Position numbers and translations under genes: made by a program. From the NCBI GenBank assembly GCA_951406725.2, contig OX597832.1, positions 42,346,001-42,410,000 of the forward strand: a stretch of DNA of 64,000 bases, given 5' to 3'. The stretch comes from Octopus vulgaris. Its lineage: Eukaryota. Numbering within the stretch: position 1 is the first letter of the stretch; every line of letters starts with the position of its first letter. A model generated the notes under the pieces. The model had not been told where the DNA came from. It worked only from the letters and a program-made list of their open reading frames with translations, and ran no database searches. Positions 34,344-36,539 of this stretch are shown here, in pieces.

Positions 34344-36539
34344 GACATGCGCAGTTAGTCGGTTGCTTCTTGTTGAGCTAGAGTGGACGTGAGCAACAAG
34401 CTCTGTCCAACTAAAGAAAAAAGACCAAAAACGGAAAGTTGTCGAGGTAAGTGATTTTGTTTATTGTGAGTTGGGCATAATTTATTGCGTGCCAATTATT
34501 ATTTCAGTAGGTTGTGTCCAACCCTGAGACAATTTCGCCTGCGCTAGGCGGCTGCCGTTTTTGTGTTCATTGAAAAAAAAAAAAAAAGAAAAAACAGTGG
34601 AGGGGCGTATACTCAGAATTCAATACAGTTACTGTTAAAATTACCGTTGGCGGTAGCCAGTGCTGCGTTTGAGTTTGCTGAATTTATTCCCTTGTCAGAG
34701 TACTTCGCAAGAAAAGTATAAAAATAAGCCACTATTGGATTACCTTTCGGACCCATTTTTGTGGAGGTTGTGTTGCAGTTGCGGCGTTCCGGGTTCAACC
34801 CAGGCCGGGAGTACCGCAAGGCCAGAATATTTTTGCTGTGTTTTTTCTGTTTATTAACTTTCTTTTGAACTTCATTTAACCACCCCCCTTTTGTTTTTTC
34901 TTTATTGCGACTTTCCGTTAATTTCTTCCCTTCTGTTGTGCTTTCTCCTTTTTGTTTTTTCAAAAATCTATCAAATTTATTTAGACTTTTGAACTTTTTT
35001 CTTCCTGCTTTTGAGTTTAATTTGAATATATTTTTAAAAAAACATGGCAATGAAAAATAACAAAGTTTTGGAGTGGGAAATCATACCACCCAAAAAGTGG
35101 TTGAAGGACCGTGAAGATAGGACGGTGGTGTTGAGAACCTACTCCAAGGCACTTGACACCATCGCCCTATTCGAAAAGACGGCAATTGAGGAGGAGTTGG
35201 AGGAGTATTTGCCAACAATTAAATTCATTTCCAGGGGTGTCAAATATGCAACGGTGTGGTTGCTGTTTGACACCCCTGAAGAGGCTTGCAAATTTGCTAG
35301 CGAACCCTTGGAGGGTAAGGAAATCTTATTCCTGCCCACGTACAAAAAAAAGAAATTGATGAAAGCTTGGATCTGCGGACTGCCACCCGACATAGAACCC
35401 GAGTGGATAGAAGAGACTATCCGCCGGGGTCTGGGTGACAGCGAAACTAAGCTCCTCAATGTAAAAGTTCTTCCTGCGGCTGCTTGGGTTGGCTCGAAAG
35501 CAATTTTGACCCTGTGGACCCAATCAGCCAATCTAGTTTTTCCAGATTTTTTGAAAATGGCCGGGTGCAGGTACCCGGTGATGCTTGAGGGTCGCCCCCT
35601 AAGTGTCATCGGTGCTTGGAGTCCGGCCACATAAAGAAGAACTGTCCTCGGGAACAAAATAGTATCCCGGAACAGTTAAGTAAAACCCCTCTAGAAGAGG
35701 GAACGATAACGGCCGAGAAAGCAGAGGACTCCTCAAGCAGAGGCCGAAAGAGGAAGGTGAGCAAAAATGGGTGCTCACCAAAGGATAATAGGGATGAGGA
35801 GAGGAGGGCGAATCTTCCAGCCACGGAGGAGACGCACCCTCCCTCAGTTGAAAAGGGAAAAAAAAAGAAAAAGAGTGTGGCACCGGAATGTCGCGGAACT
35901 ACGTCGGTTGGGGTTGTGCCACCGACAAGAGAAGGAATACCGTTGGCGGAAACTGTGCCGCCAACGAAAGAACTGAATGTATTGGTCCTCTTCTATAGAG
36001 GAGGAGAAATTGAAAAAGTGATGGAAGAGCACTACAAGGGAGCACCTTTAGCCTTCACACAGGACCCCGAATGGCCTCCGCAGGTAGCTGTGGAGGCCGT
36101 GGCGTTCGACGTGACGCTAGGGCTAAAGGAGCTCAATGAAGATTATAACTTGGTCCCGGGCGACGCGAACTCGGAACTTGACTACGTTCTGAGAGAGGCG
36201 TGGTTGATGGTGGAGGGCGCGGGCACAAGCTATTTCGAGGACGATATGTATTATTAGTAATGGACTTAAGTCCAAAAATTGAAAAATTGTAAGAGGATTA
36301 ATACCTCGTTTTGTGCTAAGCCCAAAATTGGAAAAATTGTAAGAGGTTTAATACCTCGTTTTGTGTTTATCTTTTTAAAAAGAACAATGTTTTAGAGAAG
36401 CAAAAGTCGGCGGGCGCTTTCTGTCTTCTCCCATCCTTATCATCTTTCTTTCATTATCATTCACCTCATTAATGTCCTCGTCCAACCCGCAAAGCTAACT
36501 TAATCTGTGTACTGCCTTTATGGCAAATGTTTTGAAATA
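34344..36539 (+). mobile_element. ORF1/Gag-only non-autonomous non-LTR retroelement (L1/Tx1-like by inference)
   Basis: ~17-bp TSD aagtagct(t)tgctaacca at 34326-34343 and 36540-36556. Single Gag-like ORF. Ends in aataaa. No RT. Confidence 0.75.
35044..36257 (+). CDS. Gag/ORF1-like nucleic-acid-binding protein with CCHC zinc knuckle (one frameshift)
   Basis: ORFs 35044-35634 and 35616-36257 fuse (~404 aa) if one C is added in the C run at 35595-35599, giving GRPPKCHRCLESGHIKKNCP (CX2CX4HX4C). Confidence 0.8.

Follow-up and report, generated by a model that had tools for sequence, protein, structure and literature searches.

An ORF1-only element of Octopus vulgaris, present in many copies and probably aimed at one site in the head of a SINE

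What kind of element can split a SINE of the octopus genome with more than two kilobases of DNA, and does it reach such a site by chance or by design? The locus that raises these questions lies in a window of 64 kb (the whole stretch of Octopus vulgaris DNA that was analysed), in which an insert of 2196 bp (34344-36539) separates the tRNA-like 5' head of a SINE (34304-34325) from the rest of that SINE (36557-36923); these features, and those of the insert and of the LINE described below, are all on the + strand. The reading that we prefer, and consider fairly probable, is that the insert is a non-autonomous LINE that has kept its ORF1, takes reverse transcriptase (RT) and endonuclease from a related LINE, and always lands at the same position in the SINE, between its A and B boxes. 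The SINE head aligns with uninterrupted copies at 33208, 42342 and 44457, and removal of the insert restores a SINE that matches those at 33208 and 42342. The insert is bounded by a target-site duplication, the left member of which (34326-34343, 18 nt) differs from the right one (36540-36556, 17 nt) by a single extra T in a run of T, and none of the 63,904 other 18-mers of the window matches the right duplicate equally well. An AATAAA motif at the 3' end (36536-36541) receives its final two A from the right duplicate, which leaves a duplication of 15-17 bp depending on how these letters are assigned. The insert lacks a poly(A) tail. The 64-kb window holds no second copy of the element, and a repeat search of the insert found no terminal direct repeats beyond the target duplicate.

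The SINE that received the insert carries two motifs, at 34314-34324 in the head and 36571-36581 in the remainder, which are A-box-like and B-box-like, respectively; the insertion site falls between them. ARAGORN predicted no tRNA gene at the SINE head, and Rfam gave no match in 33000-38000. The SINE may be one of those called OR1, OR2 or OK; OR2 is named in PMC4758252. The tail of the SINE (36868-36912) matches the 3' end (17924-17968) of a 5'-truncated LINE elsewhere in the window at 80% over 46 nt (E=1e-5). That LINE (16839-17990) includes a 353-aa RT fragment (RVT_1, E=4e-10) and ends in (AATC)n, and its motifs suggest that it may be CR1-like. The matching 3' end makes this LINE the probable source of the SINE's mobility; it shares nothing with the end of the insert, and therefore the SINE probably moves with a different LINE from the one that serves the insert. 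The RT fragment in question (16839-17897), lacking a common 3' end, was rejected as partner of the insert. Other repeats in the window include a MITE-like pair of 207-bp inverted repeats directly after the SINE (36934-37382, 94% complementary, 35 nt apart), a 221-aa frame at 20155-20817 (-) that resembles a Tc1-type transposase fragment by eye and has no Pfam hit at E<=0.01, a tandem array of 11 copies of a 110-bp unit with internal GT runs (48974-50210), and a 185-bp tandem pair resembling a second SINE family (19923-20290).

Within its boundaries the insert consists of a T-rich 5' leader of 700 bp (34344-35043), which is likely to hold a putative internal promoter, an open reading frame at 35044-36257 that reads through to 404 aa when its one break is written as X, and a 3' UTR of 282 bp (36258-36539) that ends in AATA. 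The 3' UTR contains a tandem pair of 50-bp units with 91-92% identity (36267-36365) and a 4-bp hairpin just before the AATA end (36513-36525); its last ~200 bp are common to more diverged relatives, and folding of the whole 3' UTR is no better than that of shuffled versions (z=0.38). There are no other long ORFs in the insert, and the window's RT fragment finds nothing there by tblastn (best E=4.6). A first-pass annotation, made from this DNA alone, had outlined an insert of about 2.2 kb with a ~17-bp duplication, a leader of ~700 bp, a ~280-bp 3' UTR with a ~50-bp tandem duplication, and neither RT nor endonuclease, and all of this agrees with what we find, the absence of endonuclease being read from ORF content and that of RT from ORF content and tblastn together. 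Its AATAAA end stands as a motif and requires amendment as to origin, since the last two A belong to the duplicate and no poly(A) follows.

For comparison with other copies, all contigs of runs X1, X3, X5 and X6 were aligned to 34100-36570 at likeness 80; none of the listed runs is recorded as RNA, and that X3 and X6 are RNA is a guess. A splice-donor-like motif at ~34447 in the leader is not excised in contigs of X3 or X6. At the run of C where the frame of the window copy is broken (35595-35599), contigs of all four runs carry one more C, with a depth of 19.8 of 14,824 in X1, 14.2 of 35.2 in X3, 14,705 of 64,612 in X5 and 10.1 of 134.8 in X6. Contigs that stop at the C run may explain why the share is so low in X1, although other copies may also have the break. 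Protein P0004 of O. sinensis and other relatives run uninterrupted across this position. The frameshift is probably particular to the window copy, either as a private mutation or as an assembly error, and the ORF is otherwise whole, as had been supposed.

The 5' part of the ORF (35044-35598, 185 aa) is predicted to form two tandem RRM-fold domains, and the 3' part (35598-36257, 219 aa) encodes a CCHC knuckle of the form CX2CX4HX4C (35604-35645), a charged linker and a C-terminal region of ~95 aa before the stop. The knuckle matches Pfam zf-CCHC at E=0.0035, with 17.8 bits under a cut-off of 20.8, and the N-part matches no Pfam family. A phmmer search of 1.84 billion representatives gave 29 hits, and the 10 that were looked up comprise eight annotated Octopus proteins and two unnamed Logan proteins. 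P0004, which is 75% identical to the 5' part, continues without interruption past the N-part as far as the knuckle, whose first cysteine is altered; seven further relatives have the full CX2CX4HX4C following the GR motif. An AlphaFold2 model of P0004 (29 sequences) has a mean pLDDT of 81, and ~90 over residues 11-190, and Foldseek places it with tandem-RRM proteins (best E 8e-5). VIA-align matches RRM domains to residues 14-101 (rmsd 2.8, 81 aligned) and 101-183 (rmsd 2.5, 76 aligned), in both cases with a Z of 8.2, which is near the background of the tool. The Atlas leads (RRM_1, DUF4780 and PRE_C2HC, all <0.9) agree with Foldseek and VIA-align. The combination of RRM and CCHC is that of type I LINE ORF1 proteins, found in Tx1-type elements of animals according to the excerpted text of PMC5203782. 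On the strength of these models, the ORF is best described as an ORF1 of predicted RRM-RRM-CCHC architecture, i.e., a type I LINE ORF1p, a feature that Tx1 shares with other clades. The "Gag-like" ORF of ~404 aa in the first-pass annotation thus keeps its length and its knuckle and loses its Gag affinity. Origin from an LTR retrotransposon or a retroviral Gag was rejected, given the tandem-RRM fold and the lack of long terminal repeats; only the knuckle is nucleocapsid-like.

Further searches with the protein returned little. Transposase_22 has no match among 28 relatives, and the C-terminal ~95 aa have no match in Atlas or among the relatives and give a single-sequence model with a pLDDT of 39.8. 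A homologue search of 684 candidates recovered P0004 itself only, and one of 772 longer candidates recovered a single match, a chimeric O. sinensis model (P0003) in which 46 aa of ORF1 (87%) are fused to an integrase (PF00665) fragment. This chimera probably arose in annotation, where one gene model was drawn across nested elements.

The element is one of a family. A matching stretch is present in 20 of the 24 runs listed, from 10 studies. With the unique flank at a depth of 55-56 in X1 and X5, five single positions of the leader have depths of 3,683-8,548, or 67-153 flank-equivalents, values of summed contig depth that are not a copy number and are to be read as an order of magnitude; the element is multicopy, at roughly 10^2 copies. 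Contigs that run from the ORF1 stop straight into the 3' UTR amount to 44 flank-equivalents in X1 and 41 in X5. The most informative contig is X3 record 11 (2083 nt), which spans 34326-36369 with 25 substitutions, 45 inserted letters and 20 deleted letters and, subject to the proviso that a contig may be a mosaic of copies, proceeds from target sequence to ORF1 to 3' UTR and leaves no space in which an ORF2 could lie. Its two leader deletions, of 12 and 6 bp, are found at 25 and 32 flank-equivalents in X1, and it therefore represents a multicopy subfamily and not merely an allele. The rows listed cover 40 of 268 substitutions, 15 of 106 joints and 24 of 1373 loose ends, and copies with ORF2 or with random flanks could lie among the remainder. 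We regard it as highly probable that the ORF1-only family is real. The proposal of a complete non-autonomous family is upheld by its multicopy state and by this second copy, from another subfamily, which is likewise without ORF2.

The coding sequence of ORF1 is also preserved. Of the substitutions listed (40 of 268), 22 are differences within the ORF, and 14 of these are silent and 8 replacements, where the expected silent fraction is 0.28 (p=5e-4). Between X3 record 11 and the window copy, both of them ORF1-only, 9 of the 12 listed differences are silent (p~1e-3), or 9 of 14 (p=5e-3) in the worst case that the two unlisted ones are replacements, and omega is ~0.13. In a post hoc split, the RRM and C-terminal regions together have 11 silent changes of 13 (five of six listed changes in the C-terminal region) as compared to 3 of 9 in the linker. 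ORF1 is under purifying selection, as the dN/dS measurement recommended at the outset now indicates for the differences listed, and this fits the need in cis that excerpts of the literature describe as shown for the ORF1p of TRE5-A and inferred for HAL1 (PMC3159450, PMC3627910).

Non-autonomous LINEs that retain ORF1 are described, in the portions of the literature cited, as HAL1 of L1, HeT-A of Jockey and Ag-Sponge of CR1 (PMC5786205, PMC5753468, PMC3627910). The octopus insert resembles these in having a leader, ORF1 and a 3' end without ORF2, in being multicopy and in keeping ORF1; it differs in its molluscan host, its probably fixed SINE site and the lack of poly(A) in the window copy. Mammalian ORF1 is of the Transposase_22 type, whereas the ORF1 of the insert is RRM-RRM-CCHC (type I). 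Membership in mammalian HAL1 was rejected, the type II ORF1p of that family having a coiled coil, one RRM and a CTD in place of two RRM folds and a knuckle. The label "HAL1-like" thus holds for the functional likeness of ORF1-only elements and fails as a family assignment, both for the type of ORF1 and for the non-mammalian host.

Whether the insertion in the SINE is more than coincidence can be judged from the junctions of other copies. The joints listed (15 of 106) comprise six empty SINE sites, four internal deletions and five in which the SINE head, at 34323-34334, passes directly to the interior of the element, at 35245, 36324, 36383, 36406 or 36467. These last five are present at single-copy depth (38-90), three of them in both X1 and X5, and four of the five have their element side within the final 220 bp, where 5'-truncated copies should begin (p=5e-4). 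They are likely to be 5'-truncated copies, a class of evidence that Kojima used for the same test of site specificity, along with a rule that target preference be recognised when >20% of flanks are of one type, in the excerpts of PMC4494074; for four of the five, the short side of the joint is <30 nt at likeness 80, a class that is often spurious. A diverged relative (X3 record 15, with 11 differences in 66 nt) passes from its 3' end to the SINE at exactly the base where the window copy does, and even in the worst case 26 of its 37 element bases match (p=5e-7). One X1 contig that crosses the 5' junction with a 1-base gap at 34342 has a depth of 41 flank-equivalents. The alignment of X3 record 11 begins at the first base of the duplicate, and the 14 nt that precede it are unlike the SINE head, which a tandem insertion, by analogy with SINEU-3, would explain. 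The window copy and X3 record 11 share a minority A at 34339, where the SINE majority has T (judged from the single A>T place in X3), and this would fit a preference for that target variant as well as descent from one insertion. Taking the SINE at its abundance of ~4e5 flank-equivalents and a genome of 2.8 Gb (PMC13282606), chance would produce 0.14-3.7 head joints for 150-4000 element copies, with P(>=5) from 4e-7 to 0.31; at 36485, relatives of the 3' end raise the depth in X1 to ~3,700 flank-equivalents. We consider it very probable that insertion is specific to this site in the SINE head, and the first-pass suggestion of SINE targeting gains from the several other copies that, among the joints listed, meet the same SINE site. 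Contigs of X1 and X5 in which a SINE head (34329-34334) is followed by the start of another SINE (34301-34303), at depths of 158-1266, may mark a hot spot or may simply follow by chance from the abundance of the SINE; their number is within the rough range of chance, and they were left out of the targeting count.

An alternative that we think improbable, although it survives better than the others, accepts the ORF1-only family and denies its site specificity: after a single old insertion into a SINE copy, the two would have spread together, either through segmental duplication or by amplification of a SINE-element-SINE composite, and chance would produce the remaining SINE junctions in a genome with ~10^5 SINE heads. 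Common descent of this kind would explain why the window copy and X3 record 11 have the 50-bp duplication and the rarer target variant in common, and would account for the one 5' junction contig at 41 flank-equivalents; the SINE tail could lend such a composite mobility through its own LINE, and ~3.7 head joints are allowed by chance if the relatives number 4000. It is harder to reconcile with the five different truncation points behind the SINE head in the joints listed, four of them near the 3' end, with the diverged X3 record 15 ending at the same base, and with X3 record 11, which, unlike a composite, has no SINE head upstream. Less likely still is tethering of the kind known from TRE5-A, in which ORF1p, perhaps through its C-terminal region, would bind the Pol III factors of the SINE and bring a borrowed ORF2p with it. 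The position of the site between A- and B-box-like motifs suits such a model, as do the silent changes of the C-terminal region (5 of 6 listed), and tethering would add a second reason to keep ORF1. In the available parts of PMC3159450, the ORF1p of TRE5-A binds TFIIIB and acts in cis, and its derivative TRE5-A.2, which has kept ORF1 alone and is mobilised in trans, lands like the octopus insert at Pol III-type units; TRE5-A itself inserts ~50 bp upstream of tRNA genes by way of TFIIIB and not inside them, whereas the insert lies inside the SINE head with a duplication of 15-17 bp. Integration at the TRE5 distance from a Pol III unit was rejected on this ground, and the 3' junction at an identical base in the window copy and X3 record 15 is better suited to a sequence-specific cut. 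The contig alignments, which cover 34100-36570 and would not reveal them, gave no insertions at tRNA genes or at further Pol III units. It is very unlikely that the insert arose from an autonomous LINE by a single internal deletion, with the selection signal supplied by other copies that carry ORF2. The dip in depth at 36258-36340 relative to both sides might be a trace of such an event, and any loose ends at the ORF1 stop would fall outside the rows listed; the evidence against it is that X3 record 11 is of a different subfamily and also ORF1-only, that the stop/3' UTR join reaches 41-44 flank-equivalents in two DNA runs, and that the 9:3 silent excess lies between two ORF1-only copies.

If the element is an ORF1-keeping non-autonomous LINE directed to the SINE, it should have a partner. 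The RRM region and the final ~200 bp both have relatives at ~80-85%. Those of the RRM region include the collinear X3 record 12 and X6 record 27, whereas X1 record 8 matches 36337-36518 only, at ~85%; in X1, X5 and X6, not in X3, the final 200 bp are 4- to 16-fold deeper than the preceding bin. These relatives may represent sister riders or the autonomous partner itself. A weak search for a fused ORF1-ORF2 protein found none among 6512 candidates of 1092-3115 aa, and a metagenome scan for a partner locus gave 595 pattern matches, of which 0 were confirmed. We presume that L1-Tx1 is the group expected to carry such an ORF1 among the LINEs active in O. vulgaris, and hold this to be probable. The groups listed as recently active in this species in the accessible portion of PMC13282606 are RTE, Dong-R4, CR1, L1-Tx1, Hero and R2; an L1/Tx1 partner is suggested by ORF1 type. 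As the first-pass annotation noted, some Tx1-clade elements are target-specific, and excerpts of PMC4494074 and PMC8869645 describe Tx1 families that target other repeats, with Tx1 inserting into Tx1D, Tx1-Mar into Mariner-N4_AMi and Keno into U2 snRNA genes, and with SINEU-3 as a non-autonomous rider of target-specific Tx1-clade LINEs that has a 16-bp duplication (PMC4494074). The likeness of the insert to this clade comprises a type I ORF1, probable insertion at one site in a multicopy repeat and likely truncated copies at the target. The targets named in the same excerpts are DNA transposons, LTR elements, snRNA and 5S genes, satellites and microsatellites (PMC4494074), and a SINE, the probable target of the insert, is not among them; the clade is defined by RT phylogeny and an APE in ORF2, whereas the insert, which has no RT, is likened to it by its ORF1 type.

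A plausible course of events can be assembled from these elements. The leader would drive a Pol II transcript, and ORF1p, with its predicted fold and a sequence under observed selection, would be made in cis and coat its own RNA, which would be the reason that the ORF1 code is kept. The ORF2 protein of an L1/Tx1-type partner would recognise the shared ~200 nt of the 3' end, and its sequence-specific endonuclease would nick the SINE at position ~22-24 and prime reverse transcription. A second cut ~15-17 bp downstream would create the duplication, which is directly seen in the window copy only, and incomplete copying would leave 5'-truncated copies at the same site, such as the head-to-interior joints appear to represent. 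The A and B boxes would end up parted by 2.2 kb, and a second parasite, with its ~10^5 copies that the host can spare, would thus offer the element a safe harbour. One may extend this, tentatively and at slightly less than an even chance, to a hitherto undescribed octopus L1/Tx1-type lineage that cuts the head of the most abundant SINE and carries an ORF1-only rider, a three-tier parasitism. The three tiers would then consist, with the same degree of doubt, of a LINE system that hunts the SINE of a different LINE and splits its Pol III promoter.

A literature search at the level of titles, with Repbase and the library of PMC13282606 outside its scope, returned no SINE-targeting LINE and no ORF1-only element of a mollusc, and the available part of PMC9115989 makes no mention of Tx1; an earlier description may exist in Repbase, in Bao and Jurka 2010, in the supplement of PMC13282606 or in the Zenodo library. 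The known ORF1-only riders come from mammals, insects and Dictyostelium, and a molluscan case with purifying selection supports a general need in cis for ORF1p. The known targets of site-specific LINEs are RNA genes, microsatellites, telomeres, and DNA and LTR transposons. If confirmed, the SINE-directed element would point to an endonuclease of new specificity, useful for site-specific gene insertion, and would allow experiments on how a retroposon can put another out of action.
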